A stretch of 64,000 nt of DNA from Schmidtea polychroa (Eukaryota), in assembly GCA_044892525.1 (NCBI GenBank), contig CM097885.1:19470001-19534000 (forward strand). Reading direction: 5' to 3'. Positions within the stretch are counted from its first letter, which is position 1. Each line of letters opens with the position of its first letter. Shown piece by piece: positions 8,511 to 60,251 of this stretch. The notes under the pieces are model-generated. The model was not told the origin of the DNA, searched no databases, and worked only from the letters and a program-made list of their open reading frames with translations. The position numbers and the translations under genes were made by a program.

Positions 8511-10889
8511 CAGGGTTTCTTAACCTGTGGTTCATGCACCCTTGGGGGGTCCATGGATCATATTTTGGGGGTTCGCCGACTGCTCCTAATTTTTAAAATT
8601 TCTTAAAAAAAAATTTTTTTTGTCAAAATTTGAAAATTTGAAACACTGAGTAGCCTTAGATTTTTATTTCACTTGCGTTAGAATCAGTTCCGCAAAGTTC
8701 TTGCAAATTCTTAAAGCGAAATATTTGTTCGTAAAGTATTGTATTTACTAGTATTTTTTTTTCGAGTGCTTTTTTTGTATCATAGTTTTTTCTAGTGTTT
8801 TTTTGTGTTATCAACGGTGTTTTCAAGTAAAGGTGAGTTCAGTCAAGTAATTCATTTGTGAACAATTTCAATTTGAATTCTTAATAATTTATTGATATTT
8901 TTTCCTAATAATTTCTTGATATTTAATTCTTGATATTTTTTGTAGCCCAAAATGTCCAAAAAAAGGAAGTACGATGAAAGTTACGTTAAATATGGATTCT
9001 GTTGCATGAAGGAATCGGACGATGTTGAAAAGCCACAATGCTTTCTATGGGGAAAAATTTTGGCAAACGCCAGTATGAAACCGGCAAAATTGATAGAGCA
9101 TCTCAAATCTCTTCATCCTGAAAATGCATCTAAAGATCTAGAATTTTTTACAAAGAAGAAAGCCCAGTTTTCGAAATCTGGAACATTAACCAAAATTGGA
9201 TTTGGTATTCCACAAAAATCTTTGGTTGAAGCATCTTTCAGAGTTGCATATCGTATTTCCAAAAGTAAGAAACCGCAAACTATTGGAGAGACATTAATTA
9301 AGCCATGTGCGCTAGAAATGGTTGAATTAGTTTGTGGACTGGAACAGAGAAAAGAACTTGAGGCTATTCCATTATCCAATGATGTGATAAAGTCAAGAAT
9401 AGTTGAAATTTCTTGTAGTATTTTGAAACAGATCATCAATGAATTGAAAGCATCGCCTGTTTTTGTTCGTTACATGTCAGCTGATACTATCAAAGAAGAA
9501 TTCTTATTTTGTGAGCCTCTTTTGCAAACTACAAAAACAGTTGATGTTTTAGCGATTTTGAATGTTTTCTTTTCCAAACACGATTTCGAGTGGAAACAAA
9601 AACTTCATTCGCTTTGTACCGATGGAGCACCTGCAATGCTTGGCAATAAATCTGGTTTTGCACATTTGGTAAACAAAGAAGCTCCTAATGTTATTATTAC
9701 GCATTGTTTTTTACATAGACATGCGATGGCTACAAAAACTCTTCCAACCAGCTTAAAAGATGTATTGTCAATAGTTATTAAAACCGTGAATTTTATTAGA
9801 AGTAGAGCTCTTAATCATCGTCTTTTTAAAACATTGTGTCAAGAAATGAACGCAGAACATGAGGTACTTCTGTACCACACGGAAGTGCGCTGGCTGTCTT
9901 GAGGGCAGGTTTTGAAACGAATTTTCATGTTGAAGACAGAAGTATCACTATTTTTGGAAGAAAAAGATAACTCGCTCTTCGAATATTTCAATAACAAAGA
10001 TTTTATATGTAAATTGGCTTACCTGGCAGACATTTTTAACCACATGAACGATATAAATATTTCAATTCAGGGGCTTGATACAACAATTATGGATGTCACT
10101 GAAAAACTACAAGCATTTTAATCGAAAATGTCCGTTTGGAAAATTAGAATTCAAAATGGGATATATGCAAACTTTCAAATGTTGGACGAATTAATTTTGA
10201 AAATGGATCTCGGCAAGATAATTTGTTATTGAATAACTTGAAGGATGTAATCTGTGAGCACCTGGAAGTACTTCAAGTTTCATTTGAAAAATATTTCAAT
10301 TTGGATGAAATAACTAAACAAGATGAGTTGTGGATTCGTAATCCTTTTCTTTGTGATATTGACTGTATCGATGACATAAACCTTGCCAACGACGAGTTAA
10401 TTGATTTGAAAACAAATTCCTTGTTAAAAATGGATTTCGATTTGGTCTTCTTTAAGAGAAGCCTACCCATTGCTAATAAAACGAGCTATGGCAGCCATTT
10501 TACCATTTGCTACGGTATATCTTTGTGAATCAGGATTTTCCACACTCGTAACAATAAAAACAAATCATCGAAATCGACTGAATGTCCAACATGATATGCG
10601 CGTTGCGTTGTCGAAAACCATCCCTCAATTCAATCTCTTAACCAAGGAAAAGCAGCAACAGCCTTCACATTGAAAATTTTATTTTCTTCAATTACATTTA
10701 TTATTTTATATCCAGGAACATAAAGATATCTGTCAACAGTTATATTATTGAAATAAAAATATTTAAATAATAAAATAGAATATATTTTGTAATAAATGAC
10801 GTTTAAACAAATTTTTTTTACAGAGGGTTCCGTGACATATTTAAAATTTTTAAAGGGGTCCATTGCACGAAAAAGGTTAAGAAACCCTG
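8511..10889 (+). mobile_element. hAT DNA transposon, Buster/Charlie type
   Basis: Perfect 16-bp TIR CAGGGTTTCTTAACCT / AGGTTAAGAAACCCTG; 8-bp TSD ttataaat / atataaat (7/8 match). Confidence 0.95.
8952..10673 (+). pseudogene. hAT (TcBuster/ZBED5-like) transposase, disrupted
   Basis: BED-like N-terminus, CTDGAPAM, HCFLHR, EVRWLS*G, LAYLADIF, FATVYLCESGFS, QQQPSH. The segment with the first catalytic Asp is deleted (KASP|VFVRY); stops and a frameshift follow. Confidence 0.93.
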
Positions 10890-22480: not shown

Positions 22481-23295
22481 ATGAACGAAATAAAAGAGAT
22501 AAACGATTAAGATGAAATCGATTAAATTGACATAGATTAAGTGCGACAAAGAGGTAATGATTAAAGGAAAATTATGATAGAGCGCCGGCGCAAGAGAAAC
22601 TGAAACCAAATTTTTGAATGGGGAAAAGCGAAGAGAGATTAAGTTACTGATGAGTTTAATATGTATATGACTAATGATATATATTTTTTAATTATATAAT
22701 TGATGTTGTGATTATATGATAGATAATTGATACGACGATATAGATAATTCATACGAGTTATAGATAATTAAAAATGGACTTAAATTCAAAGGGGGGTGAG
22801 TAGCAAAAAGTAAAAGCGTACCATCAATTAGAAAAGGAACAGCGAGAGAAATAATGAGTAAAGAGTAGTATAAAATAAAGAAAATAGGGAAATAAATGAA
22901 GGGTAGGATAAAATGAATAAAATATTATGATATGTACTAGGAGTGTTAATTATTTTAGAATAAGTCAATCAATAAGTCAGAAGGAAGTCAATACAAGCCA
23001 AGAATTCAAGAGAAATAAAGAGAAATCAAAAATTCAAAAGAAAACAACTAAGGAATCAAGAGAATCAAACGAGGATAGAAGAAAGGTAAACAAAGTCAAA
23101 TTAAATAACAAGAGGAAAATTAAAGCGTTGGCCAACGAAACACAGTGAAATTCAAAAGAGATTATTAAAGCAAGAAAAATTGATAATCAAGCCAATCGAA
23201 CGAGATCGCAGAGCAAAGGAGGCTCTAGTTTATTAGGAAACGCAGGGAGACAAAGAGCCAAGAGAAACAGAAGAATCAATAAGAAACCAGCGTCA

Positions 23296-26200
23296 GTGAA
23301 AACATTATTTGAATCAGACAGCTTAACCAACGAAGGTGAAAACAGCGACGATATTAAAAGAAACGAATTATATCCGGTAACTGATATCAAACCAACAGAC
23401 AAGGAAGATAGTAGTTCAGGCATGACAAGTTCGTGTCGAGATATAATGTTAGACGGAAACCAAGTGAACAACCCGAATGGGTCAGAGTCGACATACACAC
23501 CCGAGATAAACCATGTCAACGTCAATGTTGGAGAATTTAGAGAAAGATTTCGAGGAGAACCATTCGATGGGAATATTAATGAACTAGAAACGTTTATAAA
23601 AGAATTCGAGGTATATATTACGATATGTCACTGGCCAGACATAGTCGTACGAGAGCGAATACCATTATATTTAAGAGGAAGTGCACAAGATGTATATTTA
23701 GAGGCAAAGTGTGATACAACAAAACTAAAAACATGGAAATCAATAAAGAATTTTTTAATAAAAACATTCGGTAGCAAAAGGGAAGTAAATCGCAAAATGT
23801 TGGATTTTCTGCATCGAAAGCAGAAATACAATGAGTCAAACGCACTATATGCAGGTGAATTAAGACGACTGGCAAAAGAAGCATTCGATTCAAATCAAAC
23901 AGTTCCGGAAGACAAGATAATAGCCGTATTCGTAGAGGGTATGAAAAGAAAGGACATACGAGCAACAGTGGGTTGCCGAGCGCCAGACACGCTCGAGGAA
24001 GCATTAAAAATCGCTAATAAATGTGAAAACTACTTGACTCCAGTACAAGTAGCAGCAATGGCAGCAGTACCAATAGCTACAACACCAACAACGACAACCG
24101 AAATTAATCAAACCAACAATGAAAATCTAGGAATGAATCAATTTATCTCAGAATCGCAACAGTTGTTCAAGGCGCCAAAAACGACAAATCCAGATAACAG
24201 AGGTAATATTCAATTTTACACTAATAATTTCAGGAGCAACGAGAACAATAATCGGAAGTGTAACATATGTCAACGACTAGGACATTGGAGCAACGAGTGT
24301 TATAAGACAAGGATGTGCCAAAATTGCGGTAAAAGGGGTCACACAGAAAATATATGCCGAGGACCAATGATGTCGATGAGAAGAGGAAGGACTAGAACCT
24401 GCTACAGTTGCAACCAACTTGGACATGTGGCGAGAGAATGCGCGATGAAGACAAAACATAATCAACCAAGAGCAAACGATCCAAGTCAAAATATACAAAT
24501 CAACATCATGCAGAAAATTGAACAGTTGAAAAAGATGATCCAACGGATACCAGAGGATATCCGGAAACGACCAACAAGAGAACAACAAGACCAGCAACGA
24601 ATCGAAGGGCAGAGACCACTAAACGAAAAAGCCAGAGAAATTCAAAAAAGATGGAAAAAGCGAGAAACCAACACCGGAAGAATAAATATGATGAGATTAA
24701 TGAACAAAGGGGAACCGCACACTGCGGAGCAGTGTGTTAACAAGAAAGGGAGCGATATGACCGTAATCAACGAGACAAAAGTGATAAAAGAAAATGGGTC
24801 ACATCAATTGACGGAGCAATTGACAGAACTGAGTAGCGAGGATAAAATAAAAATAATACAAGGGTTCACCAAAGAAGAAAAAGAAAAGAGACGAAGAAGA
24901 GATGAAACAGGGCACGAACCAAAAAGCAACGAGATTGTTACAAAGAATCGAATTCAGAGGGTATTACTACAAAAAATTGAAGATAGAATTAGAAGAGAAG
25001 AACCAAAATTAACGGATGAGCAAGTAAAAGAAAAAGTAAAAGACAACTGGTTCAGGAAAAATGAGTGGTTCGAAAAAGAACCAAGTAACAGAGCCAATAT
25101 AAACATGCTGAGACAAATACAGAATGATCAGACGGATCAGGAAGACGGGAAAAGTGCGATGAGTAGCCTGAGAAGTGAATTATCTCAATCAAGTGATGAA
25201 AATAATGAACAAGGAACACCTCAAAATAACGAAGAGGGTGAGAGCGACGATATGGGATCACTGATAGAAAATGACGATGAGGAAATATTCGAGGAAATTT
25301 CCGACATGGTATCGGAAAGAGAACGAAATGAGAGCTATATCAACGAACCAACATACAGAAAATGTATAAAACTGATAACTCAAGCATACCAGTGGGAAGG
25401 AGATATATTAACGGCAACATGGAAAGATTTGGTGACGAAATATAAAGGAAAATTGAAAGAAGTTGATCCAGATCAATACCAAGTAAGTATTCAACACCCT
25501 GAAACTCAGATACAGATTATTGAATTAAAAGTAACAAATACCGATAAACTGTATAATTGGGTACAACAAAAGATGGGAACAAGTCATAAAAATAAACAGC
25601 TATACGACAATGGTTATAAAGTTAAAATGAGCATACATTTAGTAGATATGATGAGATGGCCAAACGAAGTTAATATCTTAATCTTAAAGAAAAACAGAGA
25701 CAGCGAATCAGTAACGGAAATACTGAGGAAAATCCAACAGATATTCAACAATGAAGTGGAACCAGAAATAGAAAAGACTGAACAAAAGATAATGAAGGAA
25801 AATCAAATAATCTTAGTAAAACAAGCAATCGATCAAACGAAGAAATATATTAACAGATTTAGGGAAAGATGGCCGCAGCTAATGAAACAGTTTGTCAAAG
25901 ACGTACGGGATACTGAGATTATGGGATTTGAATATAAACGAGCAACGGAGTTGATATCAAAATATGGTGAATACGAGAGAATCAGATGTGAACAAGAATT
26001 ACCATGGCCATCCAACAGAAAAGTGACAATAGTAAGAGAATCACTAAAGAATAGTCATTTAAATAAACACGAAGAAATGATCAAAACATCACATGTCGAA
26101 GACGACATTTTTGGAAAAGGCCGGAGTGGAAAAAATGACAAAGACCATAACGACAAAAATGAGGAAGACGACGGGAACCATGAAAGGAACAACATAAATG

Positions 26201-27861
26201 GGAACTCAAACGAACGAGATAATGAAGAAGACAAGGAGTCAGAAGATGACGACGAAGACTTGAAGGATACTGAGGACAACTCAGACCAAAGTGAAGACAA
26301 CCAACTTAATGAAACAGAGAACGACAAACGAAAGTCCCCACTGCATAACATAGTAATGCGGAAGAATCTAAACCAGTCACTCCTACTACAAATTATCCTA
26401 ATAATACTAACGTCAATTTGCCTAACAGAAACGAAAAATACGCGAATTACGAGAGGAAATCTGAAAGAAGGCGAACTATTCATGATAAAAGTCAGCGGCA
26501 ACAACGGAAACGCGGTCGGGATATGCATCCAATTGATGGAAGGAACCGGAGTAAGTTGTGATTTTAGAACGATAACAAAAGGGAGGATTTTCAATAGTCA
26601 AAATGTAGAACCTGAATTATGCGGAGACTACAACATTTGCGAAGACATAACATCAGAAGAAAAAGAATTGGAAAGAGCTAACGAAACCGGAGTACATGTC
26701 GCAATTAAAGCTACAATGGAAGGTATCGAAATAATAGATAAAGGAAATTTGCCAACAACGCAAATATGTTTTAGAGATGACGAAGACATATGTATAACGG
26801 TGGACATGAAACGAGATCGCGAATTTTTTTGGACAAACGTAAAACCAAACACCAACATGGTGGTATGCGCAGGTACCCAGGCAATAGTGGTATGTAAAGC
26901 AGTTAAAACCGCGCAAATAAAAAGCAGGCCAAAAAGTATGGCTAGTAAACGATATCAACCAAGGATCAAACCGGCAATTAAGAAACGCCAGAAACAATCC
27001 CGTAGGGGAATGATAAGAGGACAGCACCAAACCAAGAAAAACAAAACAGTAATATGGATCAAAGATGAGAGACGAGAAGTACTAGTAAATGTCGAATTCA
27101 ACAAGAAAAGAGAAGAAGTAATCACGGTCAGAAACCAAGGTGAAGAACCAATAGTAAGAGTATGTGTACTAAACAGGACAGGAATAGTCGACTGCATAGA
27201 AACACTACTTGACAAAGGTGCAGAAGTTAAAATGACAATAGGAGAAAGAAAGGGACGATATCACATATGCGTTCTTAAAAACGGAAGCGATTTAAGTTCA
27301 TGCCAAGCAATAACCAGACAACGACCACGGATGATAAACATACTATTGACAACCAGAAAACCAAAAGAAGTGGAAAAGCCAAAAGGAAACGAACATCTAA
27401 CGGCAGAAGAAACGAAACAGTTATACCAGATGCTCAAGAAAAATAAAACACAAGAGGCAACTACAACAGAAACTAAAATGATGATAACGACAGGAAAATT
27501 CAACGAGACACTGATAACCGTTAAAATGATGTGGATCGCTAGCGCAATAATGAGTGCAGTGATAACATCAATAATAATCCAATGGATAAGAACCTCCAAA
27601 ATATGTAAACAAAAACCTAAAGGCAGAAAAAGATGGCCACAAGTGGAGAATTCCGAATATGGTATTCCAACCGAAGACCCGAATCCAGAAGAGTACGAAG
27701 CGATTGAAGATCCAAGGTCAAGCAGACTATGGACGCAAGAATTACTCAGAATACAAACCCTAGACGATTGGGTAAACGAATTTGACATATACCGGCTAAC
27801 GGATGAAAGATATGGGGGAATGCGCACATTGCATTCAGGTCCCCTGGCAACAATGGTATAA
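23296..27861 (+). CDS. gag: Gag polyprotein (capsid plus 3 CCHC knuckles) fused to acidic/coiled regions and a Cys-rich type I membrane (Env-like) module; no PR/RT/RH/IN recognised
   Basis: PFDG..FIKEFE..W..LRGSAQ and RKQKYNESNALYAGELRRLA (capsid/MHR-like); CNICQRLGHWSNEC, CQNCGKRGHTENIC, CYSCNQLGHVAREC; hydrophobic segments at ~26377 and ~27526. The same frame extends upstream to 22927 through one TGA at 23146. Confidence 0.9.
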   Translation: MKTLFESDSLTNEGENSDDIKRNELYPVTDIKPTDKEDSSSGMTSSCRDIMLDGNQVNNPNGSESTYTPEINHVNVNVGEFRERFRGEPFDGNINELETFIKEFEVYITICHWPDIVVRERIPLYLRGSAQDVYLEAKCDTTKLKTWKSIKNFLIKTFGSKREVNRKMLDFLHRKQKYNESNALYAGELRRLAKEAFDSNQTVPEDKIIAVFVEGMKRKDIRATVGCRAPDTLEEALKIANKCENYLTPVQVAAMAAVPIATTPTTTTEINQTNNENLGMNQFISESQQLFKAPKTTNPDNRGNIQFYTNNFRSNENNNRKCNICQRLGHWSNECYKTRMCQNCGKRGHTENICRGPMMSMRRGRTRTCYSCNQLGHVARECAMKTKHNQPRANDPSQNIQINIMQKIEQLKKMIQRIPEDIRKRPTREQQDQQRIEGQRPLNEKAREIQKRWKKRETNTGRINMMRLMNKGEPHTAEQCVNKKGSDMTVINETKVIKENGSHQLTEQLTELSSEDKIKIIQGFTKEEKEKRRRRDETGHEPKSNEIVTKNRIQRVLLQKIEDRIRREEPKLTDEQVKEKVKDNWFRKNEWFEKEPSNRANINMLRQIQNDQTDQEDGKSAMSSLRSELSQSSDENNEQGTPQNNEEGESDDMGSLIENDDEEIFEEISDMVSERERNESYINEPTYRKCIKLITQAYQWEGDILTATWKDLVTKYKGKLKEVDPDQYQVSIQHPETQIQIIELKVTNTDKLYNWVQQKMGTSHKNKQLYDNGYKVKMSIHLVDMMRWPNEVNILILKKNRDSESVTEILRKIQQIFNNEVEPEIEKTEQKIMKENQIILVKQAIDQTKKYINRFRERWPQLMKQFVKDVRDTEIMGFEYKRATELISKYGEYERIRCEQELPWPSNRKVTIVRESLKNSHLNKHEEMIKTSHVEDDIFGKGRSGKNDKDHNDKNEEDDGNHERNNINGNSNERDNEEDKESEDDDEDLKDTEDNSDQSEDNQLNETENDKRKSPLHNIVMRKNLNQSLLLQIILIILTSICLTETKNTRITRGNLKEGELFMIKVSGNNGNAVGICIQLMEGTGVSCDFRTITKGRIFNSQNVEPELCGDYNICEDITSEEKELERANETGVHVAIKATMEGIEIIDKGNLPTTQICFRDDEDICITVDMKRDREFFWTNVKPNTNMVVCAGTQAIVVCKAVKTAQIKSRPKSMASKRYQPRIKPAIKKRQKQSRRGMIRGQHQTKKNKTVIWIKDERREVLVNVEFNKKREEVITVRNQGEEPIVRVCVLNRTGIVDCIETLLDKGAEVKMTIGERKGRYHICVLKNGSDLSSCQAITRQRPRMINILLTTRKPKEVEKPKGNEHLTAEETKQLYQMLKKNKTQEATTTETKMMITTGKFNETLITVKMMWIASAIMSAVITSIIIQWIRTSKICKQKPKGRKRWPQVENSEYGIPTEDPNPEEYEAIEDPRSSRLWTQELLRIQTLDDWVNEFDIYRLTDERYGGMRTLHSGPLATMV

Positions 27862-36813: not shown

Positions 36814-36960
36814 TTGTGAATTTGAAAATAAATTGTGACAAAACTACCAATGTCAATGTTTATAAAGTGATTGTGACTTTAAAAATCAAACAATCAACAA
36901 CATATACATTTTAAAATCAATAAAATAGATTAAACAATAAAATAAAACCAGAAACATTTA

Positions 36961-37345
36961 TTATAAATCAAATATTTTATACACCAACCATATTAAACAG
37001 TGTTGACCCCATGTTTGAGTCATTGAATTTTGAAACATTGTTTTATTATATACAATAGGTTTACCCATTCTTTGAAATTTCGATACCAATAACGCAGGAT
37101 AATAGAATCCCATAGGATCGAATACATGTATCCTATCGGGTTTTACATAGACTCCAATCCAATGTTGACCACCAAGATGTGATGAATGGGTATTGACGAT
37201 TATGTCTTGATTATTACGTAAATATGGTATTTTATTCAATGGATATACTCCAACAAACTCATTTCCTAAAAACTGTTTTCCAATTCGATTGACCTGTATA
37301 AAACTACCTCAATAAATTAGATAATACACAAAGAACTTACTCCAT
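36961..37345 (-). pseudogene. Adenain-type protease, copy 2 (37-nt intron 37304-37340; catalytic Cys replaced by Trp)
   Basis: MDFIQVNRIGKQFLGNEFVGVYP..GQHWIG..FDPMG..QTWGQHC. Confidence 0.9.
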
Positions 37346-37379
37346 GACAAATTTTTAATATTACCAAACGCATTTTTAC

Positions 37380-38267
37380 CTATACCAGAACAGTTCTATT
37401 TGCAGTAATTCGTACCTCATTTTCAAATACTCCATATATTCTAACATGCACAGGTTCTGCAATAGCTTTTGCAAACTTTATATCTAATCGTAAATTTCCA
37501 TTTGGAGGTAATTGACTCTGATTCAAATCAAAATCAGGTGCGAAAACAAATGTAAAGAACGGTTATTTGGTTTTGAATTCTTCAGGAATTATTCCACAAT
37601 TCAAATTTTTATCTAAATAGTCCATATTTCTTGCAATACTTTGCATATATGTAGCAGAGTAATTATCATTATCAAAATCTTGATTATATGTTTCTCTATA
37701 ATCAGTATTTTTCGATAGTGACAAGGATGTAACATCAAAGTTTTTGAAAATTGAGCTTGAAGCAATGTATGATCCATTATATGGAGTTTCAGATTGAAAT
37801 GTTATCAGAATCAAGTTTGGCATTCTTCTATCTCCATATATTTGTTCCTTATAGAAGGAAGAAGCACCTTTGGCTATTGCAAATGAAACAATTTCTTTGG
37901 TTTTCAGTGGATAGATCGCATGCTTAGAATTAAGACCCAACTGATGACCTGCTAATACCGACGGATCAACTCGAACTCGTCTTACTTGTAATTTTGCATC
38001 AACTAATTGACATATTGGTTGACCATTAGCACTAGTTAGTGACAATGCAGAATCGGTTCTTTTCAACCTAATGTGCACATTGACTCCTGGAAGTAAATAT
38101 TATGGTTGATCTAGAAAGTCAGCTGTAATGATGAACACATGGTAAAAATCTTTGAGCCTTTAATCCACTTTTTTCTATCGTCATCAGTTCCCGCATAGCC
38201 CATAGGAGTAAGATATGTATTTTTAGTATCGGTATTATAATTTAAAATAGTTTCTATTATCGCCTTG

Positions 38268-38270
<3 letters not shown>
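37380..38270 (-). pseudogene. Major capsid protein, copy 2; 5' part lost at a (TA)n tract
   Basis: Closely similar to 3205-4093 (HKAIIETILNYN..VRRVRVDPSVLAGH..GNLRLDIKFAKA); frameshifts. Confidence 0.93.

Positions 38271-38331
<61 letters not shown>
38271..38331. repeat. (TA)n microsatellite at the deletion junction
   Basis: Visible directly. Confidence 0.97.
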
Positions 38332-38337
<6 letters not shown>

Positions 38338-38415
38338 CCTTAATTAACCTATAACATTTAAAATTCATTTCTTTGTATACCAAAAATCATTTCAGACTTT
38401 GTTAATTAGCATAAA

Positions 38416-38960
38416 ATGGATCACGTTTTGGTCATGTCTGTCTGTCACTTGAAACTTTGTTTACAATTCATCTGTTTCAATTCATTAGATATTACAACTA
38501 CAAATGGACCATCAAATTACAGGTTTGTTGTCATTTGCAAATATTCCATTTAATAGTTTTTAAATTTAGGAGTATTGAAGAGAAAAATACAGATGCCGCT
38601 CAGGAATTCGGAAAACGGAAATTTAAAGAATCGACATTATCCCTGGAAACCTTGCTCAATGTTCGAGTGGATACAAAAAAGCCAATAGAATTCTTGCAAT
38701 ACAAACTAAATTATTTGTATTGTCCAATTTCTTATATATTTAAGGTAAGTTTGTTTAAATTATTTTGGATTTTATTATTTATTTATTGTTAGGAACCAGC
38801 AACTTTAGAAAAATGTTTCTACAATGTTCGATTTTCCAAAATCAAGTTCAATGATAACATGATATTGGGACAATTATTTCAGAGAATGAACGAAAATATT
38901 GAATTCAATGAAGAAGATTTGTTTATTAAATGCGATTTGGATATGATTCTCAACTCCTAA
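38416..38960 (+). CDS. Spliced hypothetical Polinton gene (exons 38416-38522, 38570-38744, 38793-38960), ~149 aa
   Basis: GT..AG introns of 47 and 48 nt keep one frame: ..GPSNYR|SIEEKNTDAAQEFGKRKF..YCPISYIFK|EPATLEKCFYNVRF..DMILNS*. Confidence 0.55.
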
Positions 38961-39325
38961 CCCAGTCAATAGTTTCAATAAATTCTTTAGTTTTTCACAT
39001 CTGGCATCATTCTCCTTTGCTTTATTAGCTAGTCTAATCATGATAATTCATCCACCATGATCATCGACCCATGGCATAATTTTTGATTCAGTAATCTAAA
39101 TAATGTTGATGTCAATTTGATCAATCAAAATAATACCTCTACAGACCTTTGAAAATAATTTTCAAAGTCTAAGCCCGATTTTTCCAAAAAATGTTTCATA
39201 CACATGAAAGCTATAATAATTCGAGACCATGTAATTTCATCATCGAATAATGTATAAAATATTTCCTCGAATAATTTTTTCACATCGGGAGTGTGACTTA
39301 AATGGTTCTCGTGTTGAATTGACAA
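38950..39325 (-). pseudogene. Bcl-2-family homolog (BH1 and BH2), 41-nt intron 39096-39136, stop in BH2; both ends uncertain
   Basis: LFEEIFYTLFDDEITWSRIIIAF (BH1: LFxDxxxWxRI), then after splicing ITESKIMPWVDDHGG* (BH2: WIxxxGGW with TGG>TGA at 39048-39050). Confidence 0.8.
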
Positions 39326-39339
39326 GCGATGTATCTGCG

Positions 39340-42300
39340 ATTAATTCTCCTGACATTGTTGTTCCAGATTGTCTCATTAAAGAAATAGAAGATCATATTC
39401 AACGAATGGGGACAGTAAAAATACAATTTGGACTTTGTGCAGAGTTTATCAACGAGGATGGTGAAATTAAAAAATGGTGTTTGTCGAATAAAGCAATTAC
39501 AATGTCATCTTCATTTATTAATGATGGAATTGAAAAAATTAAAAGAAAAGTTGGAGAAATACACTCAACAAAGTAGTGGGTGGAGAATTCATAAAATATT
39601 AGAAGTTACTATGATTTTAACTAAATTATCAGACATAATACATGTATCTGGTACGTTTTAAACATTATTATATATAAATCAAGTTATTTACTTAGGTTCA
39701 AGTTACGTTAAAACGCCAAATTACCTGAAAAACTGTAATTTACTGTTAATGTTCAAAACAATGATCAATTCTGTTTTTTATATAGCATACTAGCCGTGTT
39801 ACGTTATGATGATATACGCCGGGATAGAGAAAGAACAACAAAATATAACTTAAGTGGTAATATATATATATTAATAAATGTCATAAATCATTGAATTTTG
39901 TTTTTAAGATTTAAAATGGAAATTTGAATGGTTTCCCATGAAGTTGGTTAACATTTGCCAATTTGAAGCAATGAATCCAAATCTAGCGATCAATGTTCTC
40001 AAATATAATAAAGATCCAATTAAACAAAAAACTAATGATATTTTCAAGAATCCGTTCGTTGACTTGGTATATAGAAGTACTTCGACGGGATCTCAGATAT
40101 ATCTCCTATTGATTGAAGAAGGTAATATTTTCTTTAATCATTAAAAATATTAACTAAACTTTAGAATTAAATTATCATTTTTTGGCTGTAACCAATCTCG
40201 ATCGACTGCTGAATTACAGAGATAGAGTAGAAGGAGTCAGAATCCAATCACAATGGTGTCATACATGTCTTCATGGGTTTCGAAAACGTCCTGCTTTTGA
40301 AAGACATATAGGTCTTTGTAGGAAGAATGTGGAGCGGACGACTCTATACTCAATGCCAGAGAATAAATATATCGAATTTAAAGACTGGAGTAAAACTATA
40401 AAACAACAGTTTGTTGTCTACGCGGACTTTGAATCGATATTACCTCTAGATGACAAGCACTTCCAAAAACATGAGCCGATTGCATCTGAATTTGTGCTTC
40501 TTCATCAAGGTTGTCCGATCCGAAATGAAACATTTGTTGGGAAAAACTGTATCATTCAGTTTATACAAGCATTGGATGATATAGCTACAGACATAGTTTA
40601 TCCGTGGTATAAAACTAATGGATCAAAGGAAATGATGGAACTCACCTGGGAACAACAGGAAGAATTCACGACTCAAACTCATTGCTACCTTTGTAAAAAG
40701 ATTATTAATATACCTATTCGAGATCATGATCATTTTACTGGTCAATATCTCGGAGCAGCATGTCAAGATTGCAACTTGGCTAGAAGAATCAATCCGTCTT
40801 TACCTGTTGTATTTCATAATCTTCGTGGATATGACATTCATCATATATTAAAATATGCAATTGGAAAATTCCACGATTGGAATTTAATTGTTATTCCTCA
40901 ATCAACAGAAAAGTTTCTCACACTTACAGCGACATCGAAAGGCAGAAGAATTAGATTCATTGATTCTTTACAATTTTTAAATAGCAGCTTGGCAAATTTA
41001 TCAAAAAACTTGCCACGTCTTCCACTGACCTCAGATGTTTTCGAATCGCAGATGATGACTTGTAAAACCATTTTTCTTTATGATATGGCTACGTCAATGG
41101 ATGTTTTACAGTCAATAACAGAATTACCAACGATTTGGGAAGGAGTTAGTCAAGAAGATTATATACATGCAAATCAAATCTGGCGACAATACAACTGTGA
41201 GACACTGCTAGATTACATGCTCGTATATCTCAAGTTGGATGTTTTTCTACTAGCAGATATTGTTGAGGCTTTCAGAGAAAAAAACATTTGACGAAGATGG
41301 ACTTGAGGCTCTGTTGTTTGTTTCCATACCTGGATTAAGTTGGGCATCAGCAATTAAACAATTAGCTGAACCGATAGAACTTATTCAAGATCCAGAGCTT
41401 TACCGTTTATTTGAAGCTGGTATTCGCGGTGGAATGACATTTATCAACAAACATCATGTTGAAGCTGATGAATCCACACAAATGTCATACCTAGATGTTA
41501 ATAATTTATATGGATGGGCAGTGTCGCAAAAACCTCCTATTAGTGAATTTAGATGGTTAGAAGATCAGACTGAAATGGATAGTATTATTAAAAGATGTAT
41601 GAATGGAGATGAGTTTGATGGAGATCGTGGATATGTTTTGGAGGTTGATATCGTCATTCCAGATAGTATACAGGATAAACTAGAAGATTTACCTATAGCT
41701 CCTGAGCTTTTTTATCCGCCTGGAAGTAAAGTTGAAAAGTTGTTATTAACACACGAACCAAAGACCAATTATGTTATTAATAGTAGAATTTTGACTGAAT
41801 GGTTGAGTTATGGCGCAAAAGTCACAAAAGTTAATCGTGCTGTAGAATTCAAGCAAGTAGCTATTTTCAAAGGCTATATTGATTACAATACTCAAATGAG
41901 AGCAGCTAGTACAGATTCATTTCAGCGAGATTATTATAAGTTAAAGAACAACAGTTTATACGATAAAACCGTGGAAAACCTTAAGAAACGTATAAATTTG
42001 AGATTATGCAGCAAAAGAAAAAGATTGATAACTTATTGTAGTAATCCTACGTTTCGTCGTAGCATCAAGATTGCGGATGATCTCATTGCTGTTATACTTG
42101 ATAAGGAAATGGTGTGTTTAGATAGACCAATGTACATTGGACAAACCGTACTTGATTTATCTAAACTTCGCATGTACCAGTTTCAATATAAAGAACTACA
42201 GAGTTACAGAGAAGAATTTAATTGTCAAATTAATATCGTAGTCGGTGACACAGATTTCTTCTTTTTAGAGTGTAAAAATGTTGATTTACGCTTACAACTG

Positions 42301-48389: not shown

Positions 48390-50336
48390 CTGGGATGCTA
48401 CCCGAAATTAGAAAAACCCGCTACCCGATAGTAATTTCTTACCCGACTCTGCGGGACCCGACCATATTAGAAAAAATACCCAATGCCGGTAATAGGTTTA
48501 TTTCTTTTTGAAAAAACTTAAAAGAATTTATTTAGTATTCAAAAAGTCAATAATTTCAATATAAATTATAATAGATGGCGAAATTAATACAGTTGTTTCA
48601 ATGAAATAATAATAAATTCCATATTTCTTTTGCAAGGGTATTAGGCGTGTTGAATTGAATTTCTTTTCTATCTATCCATCATATTTTATCGAGGTTTTAT
48701 TAAAAATGGAAAGAACAAAACAAACTGATGAAGAAATCATTGCAATAATAACTCCAATGTCTAATTATTCATATTTTTTTGTTATCAACAATGTTCTAGA
48801 TGTCGCTATATGCAAAATGCGTTCTTCAAAACTTTCGTATAATCGGAAGAAAACAGGAACAAGCTGTCGTTTGAAATATTTAAAAAGCAAGCATCAGAAA
48901 GTGGCATCAGAGAAGTCGAAATGTTCAATATCTTCTAATCAACCTAGTCTACTCAAATTCAATTTTCAAAATTCTTCTGAGAATGCAATATCAATTATGT
49001 CTCCAATTAAAAGATGTGTATTAGCTCTATGTTCAAGTCGACACGTACTTTCATTTCAATTATCCCGTAGTTTCAATCTTCCAAAAATTTCAAGAGTGAT
49101 TGTTAGAAATGAAATTATTCAAAAAGCTCGAGAGAAACGTGAATTTTTGTTTTCTCAAAATAGAGGACAATGGATAACTTTAGCGTTAGATGGATGGGAA
49201 AACCCATTTTCAAATGACAAACATCTATCTTTAATATTTTTCTTTTGCAATCGACCATCAATACCTGTGTTCTTCAAAAGCTTCCAAATTCATGATTCAA
49301 CTGCAGATACAATTTCAAATTGTGTTTTTGAAGCAATTCAATTTTTGAGTATGTATGAAATTACAATTATTGCTATCGTTACTGATAATCCCAGAAATAT
49401 GATAGCTGCTACTAATAATATATTCGACTTGAATCCTTCAATTCTTCCTTTACGTTGTGCAGCTCATATTTTGAACTTGATTATAAAAGATTCATTTAAA
49501 GAAGTAGAGCTGTTGAGGAACTCATTGAGTATTTTGCAAGAATTCATCAATAATGGAACGATATCAAGATGCTGTGAAACACATTGGAATAGTGTCTTTG
49601 ATAAACTAATTAAACTTTTGAAATTAATTGAACAAAATTCAAATTATAATGAAGAATTAATTCATAGAATTCAAAATGCTATCACCACGATACAACCAAT
49701 TATTAATGCTCTAAATTATAATCAAAAAGATTGTTGAAATTGGATTGACTTTCATAAAATATTTGAAGGTGTGATTACACAAATTCGTGAATCTGAAAGA
49801 AATTCATTGATGCAAATTATTGAAAAAAGAATTCCTTTAATTGCTAATCCTATTATTAAATTGATTCAATTTGTAAATGAAAAAAAATTCGTTAAATGAT
49901 AATGATTACTCAATTCTATCTAGATAGCTTAATTCATTGAATATTCCTGAATTTAATCAAAATGCAGCTGATATTGAATTCAATCCCTATGCGAACATTT
50001 CTAAAAGATTGCAATTACTTTTGAATAATAAAATTCTTGAAATTTCTATAAGAAAAGCAGCTGTTGAAAGATGTTTTAATGTTCATAAACATATTCATAC
50101 TCCAATAAGAGCTAATCTTTCATCAAATCTTGTTGATGATATTTTATTTTTGAGATATAATTATAATTTAGTTCTTATTTAAAATGATCAAGATAACTTT
50201 GATACCATGCTCCCTTTGATTGAAGAATAAAAAATGAGTTTATTTGAATATTACCCGAATTCGGGTCCCGTTACCCGATAATAATTACTCGCTACCCGAA
50301 ATAAATACCCGGGTACCCGCTCAGGTAGCATCCCAG
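48390..50336 (+). mobile_element. hAT DNA transposon 2
   Basis: 13-bp TIR CTGGGATGCTACC / GGTAGCATCCCAG; subterminal TACCCG repeats at both ends; 8-bp TSD accatcga / atcatcta (6/8 match). Confidence 0.88.
48706..50230 (+). pseudogene. hAT transposase, disrupted
   Basis: LALDGW (D1), IVTDNPRNM (D2), RCAAHILNL (CxxH), ETHWNS, AAVERCF..RANLS (E, dimerisation domain); stops and a frameshift. Confidence 0.9.
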
Positions 50337-58300: not shown

Positions 58301-58984
58301 AGTTTACTAATAAATTTAATTACTTTTACAAATTCTGTTGCATTCAAGTGACAATTTACTGAGAATGCAAAATAATCCGTATGCGATATATGAATTTGTG
58401 GCACTGCACAATCGGATTCCGACGCCTCAGTTCTTATATTTAATTTTAAAAAAAATAAAAAAAAATAATAATTTATTATTTTTTCATATTTAATAAATTG
58501 CAATTGGTTAAAATTTATTGTTTATACAAATGCAAAGTTTATCGGAATCTCAACTTGATAATATGTAAATAACAAAGATAACACTGGTTAACAAATCTTT
58601 ATTTAATATAACAAATAACCTTTGGTAAAAATATACAAAATGTTGATGAGTATATTCGTATGTCTACCGCATCAAGGTATACCTGGTTTTATGAAATAGT
58701 ATCATCTATTATATAAAATATCAATAAGTTCATATGATAGAAACATGCAAACTTACATGTGTTTATTTTTAAGATGGCATGGAATAACATTAATAAAGAA
58801 ATCGAAAAAGTAGTAGAAAAAATAAATGTAACACAGAAACACAGCATATATTAATGCTAGAATTTGAGAAAAAAGACAATAAAAATAAAAAGAACAAAAA
58901 CTAAGTAAAAATATATGAAAACATCAAAAATTAAAAACTAACTGTTAAAAATAGTTTTTAAGACTATATCTCACTCTCACCATA

Positions 58985-59425
58985 CAGAAGATTTTGGCTA
59001 AGAGCCCAACCTTACAGATTATTCTTATCTATATATAATAATTCTGTATAATCAGAAACTGCAATGTAATTTTTGTTAGCAAATGTTAACCGACACCGTA
59101 TTCCTCCCTCGTAGAAATTATAAATTATACATATCCATGTCCTGTAAAAGTTCCATGGGTTCTGTTAATGTCATGAGTGCTGAGGTCCATGACATACCCG
59201 GAATACCATAGAAATTTAGAGGTTCAAGACCATTATATGCAATGAACTTAGCCTGTAACTAATTGCTGAAAATAATCTGCAAAGAAGAATACGTCTAATT
59301 TTAGGTAAGTTAACATATAGTAACGCAAAATTAATACAGTTTTGCTGAATCAAAATTAGCTGTGCCTTAGCGTAATCGTCTTCCGTAACATCAAACCAAA
59401 TAGGAGGCAACTCATAAGTAGTCTC
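58985..59425 (-). pseudogene. Third pPolB fragment, same lineage as pPolB A
   Basis: Nucleotide-level similarity to 12570-12975 (ELPPIW, GLEPLNFYGIPGMSW, FYEGGIR, WALSQ). Confidence 0.85.
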
Positions 59426-60251
59426 ATATATTGTTATTGTTATAAGTAACTTAAACGAATAAATAAATAATAATAATTAATTTTTATTATATTATATTAT
59501 TGCATTCTATATTAACCCCATAACCATATAGGTATATGAGGCCACATTGAACAGTCAAAATCAATAGTGTTTTAACACTATCAATTTTCTAGACTCTCAA
59601 TAATTTGCGGGCAAATGCTATCTAACATAGACAGACCAAAAAACGACCCTTAAAACGCATTTTTTTCAGGGAAAATTTGCTTGAAAATATTCTAAAAATT
59701 TTAATACAAATATCCGTATAATTTGGGTGTAGTTTGTTGAATCTAAAATCTCAGATGTTCTATTTTGGAACCGAATTTTACGATGGGAAGCCGATTTCTT
59801 ATGCAATTTTCAGTAGTGCAATGTATAGATGGAATTTAAAGACGAATATATAAATATTAAAAATATAAATGCCTTGCGTCATACGTGCGTTTTTGACGCA
59901 AACTAATATGTTTCTCTTAGATTATGACGTGTAATGCAATTTACAGTATTGCAATGTATAGATGGAATTTAGAATCAAGTATATTTGCATTTTAAAGTTT
60001 TGAAAAATATCAATGCGTTGCGTCATACGGGCGTTTTTGGTTTTGAACACACTGATTCGAACGCATGCAATAAAATTCACGTGAAGGACTTGGAATTTTG
60101 GAAAAAAGGGCGCCCGGGAAAAACCTAATTTATTATATATATCATCGATATCAATTCGTATTTCATCACTTTTTATTATAAAAAAAAGATATAAATATAA
60201 CGTAATACTGAATTCACCTGGAGGGTAGAAATTAAATTGATATTATTATTT

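Follow-up and report, generated by a model that had tools for sequence, protein, structure and literature searches.

Within the window, the whole 64 kb stretch of Schmidtea polychroa DNA analysed here, a short Bcl-2-like sequence lies on the minus strand in direct contact with the gene for a protein-primed DNA polymerase (pPolB B). The following features were recognised in and around it:

36912..38280, minus strand: cysteine protease and part of a putative major capsid gene, an inverted fragment (82% alike to element A in blastn)
38504..38953, plus strand: spliced gene, truncated at its 3' end by the left junction (open reading frames and a GT-AG intron at 38745-38792; start placed by eye)
38951..38953: left junction, where the plus-strand gene and the Bcl-2 block overlap by 3 nt (contig ends)
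38951..39095, minus strand: BH2 exon, cut at 38951 (second-ranked six-frame match)
39050-39048, minus strand: stop codon inside BH2
39074-39051, minus strand, second frame: BH2-like motif
39136-39096, minus strand: probable 41-nt phase-0 GT-AG intron (the better of two stop-free joins)
39137..39281, minus strand: surviving part of the BH1 exon, 5' side cut (PF00452, profile-profile comparison and top six-frame match)
39250-39215, minus strand: BH1-like motif
39281: right junction, where the Bcl-2 block and pPolB overlap by 1 nt (contig ends)
39281..42770, plus strand: gene for the protein-primed DNA polymerase B, frameshifted and without its 5' end (PF03175, E 1.2e-10)
39651-39695 (45 nt) and 39857-39908 (52 nt), plus strand: short GT-AG introns in pPolB B, absent from its metagenomic relatives

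The setting is that of a Polinton, as the sequence-only reading had proposed: the polymerase adjoins the Bcl-2 block and an adenovirus-type protease (PF00770, E 4.7e-5, 36964-37308) lies 2 kb away. The protease shares its fragment, which ends at an (AT)n run and may belong to another family, with a gene that has no match in Pfam and that we take to be the capsid gene from Polinton gene order. The plus-strand gene that follows (38504..38953) found no match in Pfam or Atlas, and other copies of it extend past 38953. A contig from public run X13 skips approximately the intron 38745-38792 of this gene (joint from 38745 to 38809, with 16 letters between) and may represent a spliced form. Integrase signals, a weak rve_3 match (E 0.0057) and a chromo domain, were found in element A only, and none among the open reading frames beside pPolB B. 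Neither the longest 25 of 3279 inverted pairs nor a scan for end motifs included terminal inverted repeats or a 6-bp target duplication around this copy.

Several other mobile sequences occupy the rest of the window. The integrase of element A is broken at 775-880 by an in-frame (ATT)n run with GT on one side and AG on the other, which is probably a microsatellite-containing intron, and a 21-kb LTR element (14048-35057, with 5.1-kb LTRs that are 97% alike and a 4-bp target duplication) sits inside the polymerase of element A. The one long open reading frame of this LTR element (23149-27861, 1570 aa) encodes gag and CCHC and has no reverse transcriptase or integrase match in Pfam. A third, heavily decayed pPolB remnant lies on the minus strand at 58970-59464. 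Two open reading frames resemble DNA-transposon transposases, one with a DUF659 match (48616-49737) and one without a Pfam match that is presumably a transposase (8946-10673).

The sequence-only reading had seen a Bcl-2-like gene here, and this gene is real: both motifs lie on the minus strand, and the in-frame 41-nt join between them is free of stops and scores above chance against controls. From the sequence comparisons, an origin of the block in the Bcl-2 family is very likely. The only Pfam family matched by the 71-aa open reading frame with BH1 was Bcl-2 (PF00452, E 7.6e-4), with the BH1 exon alone scoring 20.4 bits over profile positions 25-65 of 100, below the curated cut-off of 31.4. 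An independent profile, a narrow one built from 120 proteins (117 vertebrate BCL2 and three of herpesvirus type), ranked the BH1 piece (9.5 bits) and the BH2 piece (6.2 bits) as the top two in a six-frame scan of the 64 kb, the next-best score in the window being 4.3 bits. With the same profile the 41-nt join reached 15.2 bits, against a maximum of 7.4 among 382 control blocks put through the same splice search. Profile-profile comparison gave E 2.5e-4 and a probability of 43% for the BH1 exon, and E 0.046 and 1% for the BH2 exon alone. The predicted 48-residue model consists of three helices and is too small for fold searches. Bcl-xL and canarypox Bcl-2 appeared in a PDB sequence search at E 0.02-1.2, singly non-significant; the four PPR designs that topped this search were rejected as summed repeats. 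P0001, the sole match in a search of 1.84 billion representatives, is a repeat protein aligned upstream of BH1 and was put down to chance. Other protein searches with the BH1 exon yielded no true relatives, either among the eight candidates of one or in another, and Atlas returned no usable matches for it. A locus search with the same exon confirmed none of seven viral stretches and none of 493 metagenome contigs.

The BH1-like motif is contained in a 71-codon minus-strand open frame (39340-39125), the first 20 codons of which are antisense polymerase sequence, 39282-39340 lying beyond the right junction. Around the motif six of the invariant columns are kept (L, F, D, W, R and I) and the Gly positions are altered, with Ser at the position of the conserved Gly. 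BH2 follows downstream of BH1, collinear on the same strand and interrupted by the stop codon, and the spacing between the BH1 and BH2 Trp residues is 39, compared with 44 in 113 of the 115 references measured. After the stop the BH2 exon stays open for 32 further codons, ending in the apparent start of a tail anchor (38990-38952), which takes up the 13 codons next to the left junction and resembles the BCL2 consensus by eye only. BH3 and BH4 are outside the surviving block and would fall beyond 39281. With a stop in BH2 and both ends gone, this copy makes no working protein.

The limits of the block were obtained by comparing window positions 38340-41340 with contigs of four public runs (X1, X8, X13 and X17). 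The Bcl-2 sequence occupies 331 nt (38951-39281) and is bounded by two junctions, past each of which other copies continue differently, and the junctions are visible from both sides in all four runs compared. On the left, matches of X8 record 24 and X13 record 9 end at 38953, and those of X8 record 25 and of 20 X1 contigs start at 38951. On the right, contigs of X8, X17 and X13 match rightward only, those of X8 and X17 having loose ends before 39281 and X13 record 10 starting there, and 15 X1 contigs match leftward only, with loose ends behind 39281. The block is repeated in run X1, these 15 and 20 contigs having loose ends at its two edges, and one X1 contig connects 38941 to 39249 with undefined letters between. 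Read by hand, the 30 unmatched letters beyond each end of the Bcl-2 block give nine stop-free codons in the Bcl-2 frame, which is a weak hint of longer copies because both would be open with a chance of about 1/5 at this base composition; those at the 3' end prolong the hydrophobic stretch. No contig bridging Bcl-2 and pPolB in an intact layout is among the contigs listed. The head-to-head contact with pPolB that had been described is present and is a product of the junction, not an intact layout. Likewise, of the suggestion that the 5' end of the Bcl-2-like gene is lost or overlaps pPolB, the loss stands and a true overlap does not, since 39282-39340 is antisense polymerase past the junction, the one junction at which the 5' ends of both genes were lost. 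At 38951 the Bcl-2-like gene has likewise lost its 3' end.

Sixteen related polymerase loci were available from metagenomes, and three of them (L008, L009 and L014) have unbroken polymerase frames of 1224-1276 codons, to which the 3' part of pPolB B is 56-61% identical. All three have about 110-135 extra residues upstream of the residue that matches 39280-39295, and by this comparison pPolB B lacks about 110-135 N-terminal residues. The polymerase match of element A starts near the same residue, so that the alignment edge alone is no proof of truncation. A polymerase-leader profile from the three relatives found nothing near the junction and is insensitive, having missed the leader of element A too. 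Queries with pPolB and capsid in viral contigs gave no confirmed locus. In L014, an open reading frame upstream of pPolB (52-738) has a Cys/His motif that by eye is like the N-terminus of the same element's polymerase.

The best explanation, to which we assign a probability of about 60%, is that the block is the deletion remnant of a Bcl-2 accessory gene of a Polinton. It would be the dead middle of a two-exon Bcl-2-family gene of an adintovirus-like element, which in intact copies would stand antisense to the polymerase and upstream of it. Two deletions, with overlaps of 1-3 nt, would have removed sequence on each side of the block, and in doing so would have shortened the neighbouring gene at its 3' end and pPolB at its 5' end. 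Deletion is favoured by the cutting of all three neighbouring genes at the junctions and by the repetition of the block in X1, unlike a single host gene. The position is also that of the adintovirus ‘Oncoid’ accessory genes, which, according to the sections consulted of PMC8502044, typically sit upstream of PolB. Bcl-2 matches were found in none of 18 related polymerase loci (best score 3.7 bits), the upstream flanks of which are short: five reach the equivalent of the junction, with 99-1359 nt present upstream.

The intact product would be a small tail-anchored Bcl-2-fold protein that restrains Bak/Bax-type or BH3-only proteins of the host during replication of the element. BH1 and BH2 followed by a tail anchor are the usual layout of pro-survival proteins, and, by analogy with viral Bcl-2 proteins, the intact copies would most likely encode a pro-survival protein with a tail anchor, which would postpone the death of the host cell during replication. 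It is conceivable, if doubtful, that the intact protein, though derived from Bcl-2, is not a classical apoptosis blocker, having an altered BH3 selectivity or a role in autophagy or innate signalling, a proposal compatible with either origin of the block. The helix 5-6 region is five residues short, and Ser for the BH1 Gly changes BH3 selectivity in mouse Boo, as described in the part consulted of PMC8998228. However, BH1, BH2 and the probable tail anchor of the block keep the pro-survival order, and the Ser may be decay in the window copy, for which three of the block's differences are listed.

Deletion and insertion both yield the same loose ends, and we infer the former from the state of the neighbouring genes. 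It appears unlikely that the block instead comes from another repeat or from a sister Polinton family and was pasted, through a template switch or a repair event, into a polymerase family that normally has no Bcl-2 gene. Such an insertion would account for a depth that is lower over the block than over either flank: the summed contig depth in X1, which is not a copy number, is 30,000-54,000 over the block versus 69,000-331,000 and 282,000-808,000 over the flanks, the depth in X13 is below 1 in two of three bins, and X17 gives no cover. Yet depth is a poor guide, because it is also near zero in the flanking gene (38421-38469), where the window copy has diverged. The surroundings are rearranged, the capsid/protease fragment facing away from pPolB and being convergent with it in L014 and element A, and short overlaps are also produced by template switches. 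On the other hand, insertion would need the loss of both neighbours' ends in addition, and the X1 contig noted above connects both sides of the block.

Removal of 39136-39096 joins the BH1 and BH2 frames in phase 0, with a donor AG/GTATTA and an acceptor TTATTTAG/A. Only one other of the 13 GT-AG joins considered between the motifs is likewise free of stops, and this 47-nt join has a poor donor; from the sequence the exact 41-nt intron is likely. It is plausible because the lineage of the element has GT-AG introns of 45-52 nt without counterpart in relatives: the pieces of pPolB B flanking the 45-nt intron map to residues 240/242, 302/304 and 271/273 of the three relatives L008, L009 and L014, and the 52-nt stretch 39857-39908 is without a counterpart in L009. 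A splice test of the whole pPolB gave scores of 123-132 with the introns removed versus 242-309, lower because a further frameshift was unmodelled. The short polymerase introns represent either a gain in the window lineage or a loss in the relatives. A different account of the Bcl-2 block, in which the 41-nt stretch is no intron and the frame change between BH1 and BH2 reflects decay or the use of another splice, is rather improbable. The top-scoring join is in fact a 35-nt one (21.7 versus 15.2 bits), but it contains two inner stops and the profile is narrow, whereas the 41-nt join is stop-free and has a good donor and acceptor. The 41-nt intron is also shorter than the other introns of the element (45, 48 and 52 nt) and less AT-rich (78% versus 82-87%), and its splice is absent from the 15 of 40 contig joints listed. 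Of the contigs over this stretch, X8 record 25 includes the intron letters, and a minority of other copies have one letter missing inside the intron (place 39123).

The intron also bears on the idea that the block never was a gene of the element and instead stems from a host Bcl-2 gene or pseudogene, part of which was captured by repair; a spliceosomal-type intron would fit such a fragment, but the block is repeated in run X1 and lacks the intron that, according to the part consulted of PMC7527217, splits BH2 after a Trp codon in nearly all animal bcl-2 genes, so that we consider this very improbable. In the window BH2 is continuous, and the 41-nt intron lies seven codons before it. Returning to a remnant of a Polinton accessory gene, the intron was probably gained inside the element, given that its position differs from the conserved BH2 site of host genes and that it is similar to the short introns of the polymerase. 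The simplest reading of the sequence would be a capture via an intronless copy followed by intron gain in the element, as in the polymerase. A fuller and more tentative version holds that a host Bcl-2 entered this Polinton lineage as an intronless mRNA copy, that the new intron arose in the same wave of gain as those of the polymerase, and that a Ser-type BH1 groove tuned to the invertebrate host was selected. If true, a virus-like element would be generating its own spliceosomal introns in captured cargo. The position of the intron is a useful clue in either respect, as it bears on the route of capture and on intron gain in virus-like elements.

Apoptosis regulators are known as cargo of other selfish elements of planarians, and the consulted sections of PMC6431247 describe BCL2-like and BIR domains in Burro LTR retrotransposons. 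There the BCL2-like domain is inside a polyprotein, whereas the gene in the window is separate, predicted to be spliced, and located beside pPolB; the window's own LTR element gave no Bcl-2 match in the six-frame profile scan. Since planarian Burro retrotransposons have it too, Bcl-2 cargo alone does not demonstrate a viral lifestyle, and the earlier argument that the captured gene supports such a lifestyle for this family is weak. The capsid and protease genes are the better sign. With cellular multi-motif Bcl-2 genes (PF00452), the block shares the order of BH1 and BH2 along a single strand and, probably, a C-terminal anchor; it differs in having no BH2-splitting intron, Ser in place of Gly in BH1, and a shorter BH1-BH2 spacing. 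The vNr-13 gene of turkey herpesvirus, as presented in the part consulted of PMC7199394, is a viral Bcl-2 gene likewise divided into two exons by a single intron, and it encodes BH motifs and a tail anchor. However, vNr-13 keeps the exon/intron structure of host Nr-13 and has 64% identity to the chicken protein, unlike the window gene, for which no close cellular relative was found and the intron of which is off the conserved BH2 site.

A parallel in kind is found in the adintoviruses, for which Bcl-2 cargo is already published: the consulted portion of Starrett et al. 2021 (PMC8502044) reports homologues of Bcl2 and IAP, and in panel B of its Fig. S2 the figure text has Bcl2 labels close to the maps of Astyanax and Steinernema. 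In both cases the Bcl2 gene is carried by a Polinton-type element of animals that also has pPolB and an adenovirus-like protease. The main text of that paper, in the sections consulted, makes no mention of splicing, whereas the window copy is predicted to be spliced, is interrupted by a stop and has lost both ends. In the literature covered, which lies outside subscription journals, we found no description of a spliced Bcl-2 gene from a Polinton, and the searched parts of PMC11071296, PMC10748475, PMC8532177 and PMC11410931 do not mention Bcl-2. The block adds to the known cases in which animal Polintons carry an apoptosis regulator, and it illustrates why such cargo escapes notice: the gene is small, probably spliced, and had no counterpart in the protein libraries searched.
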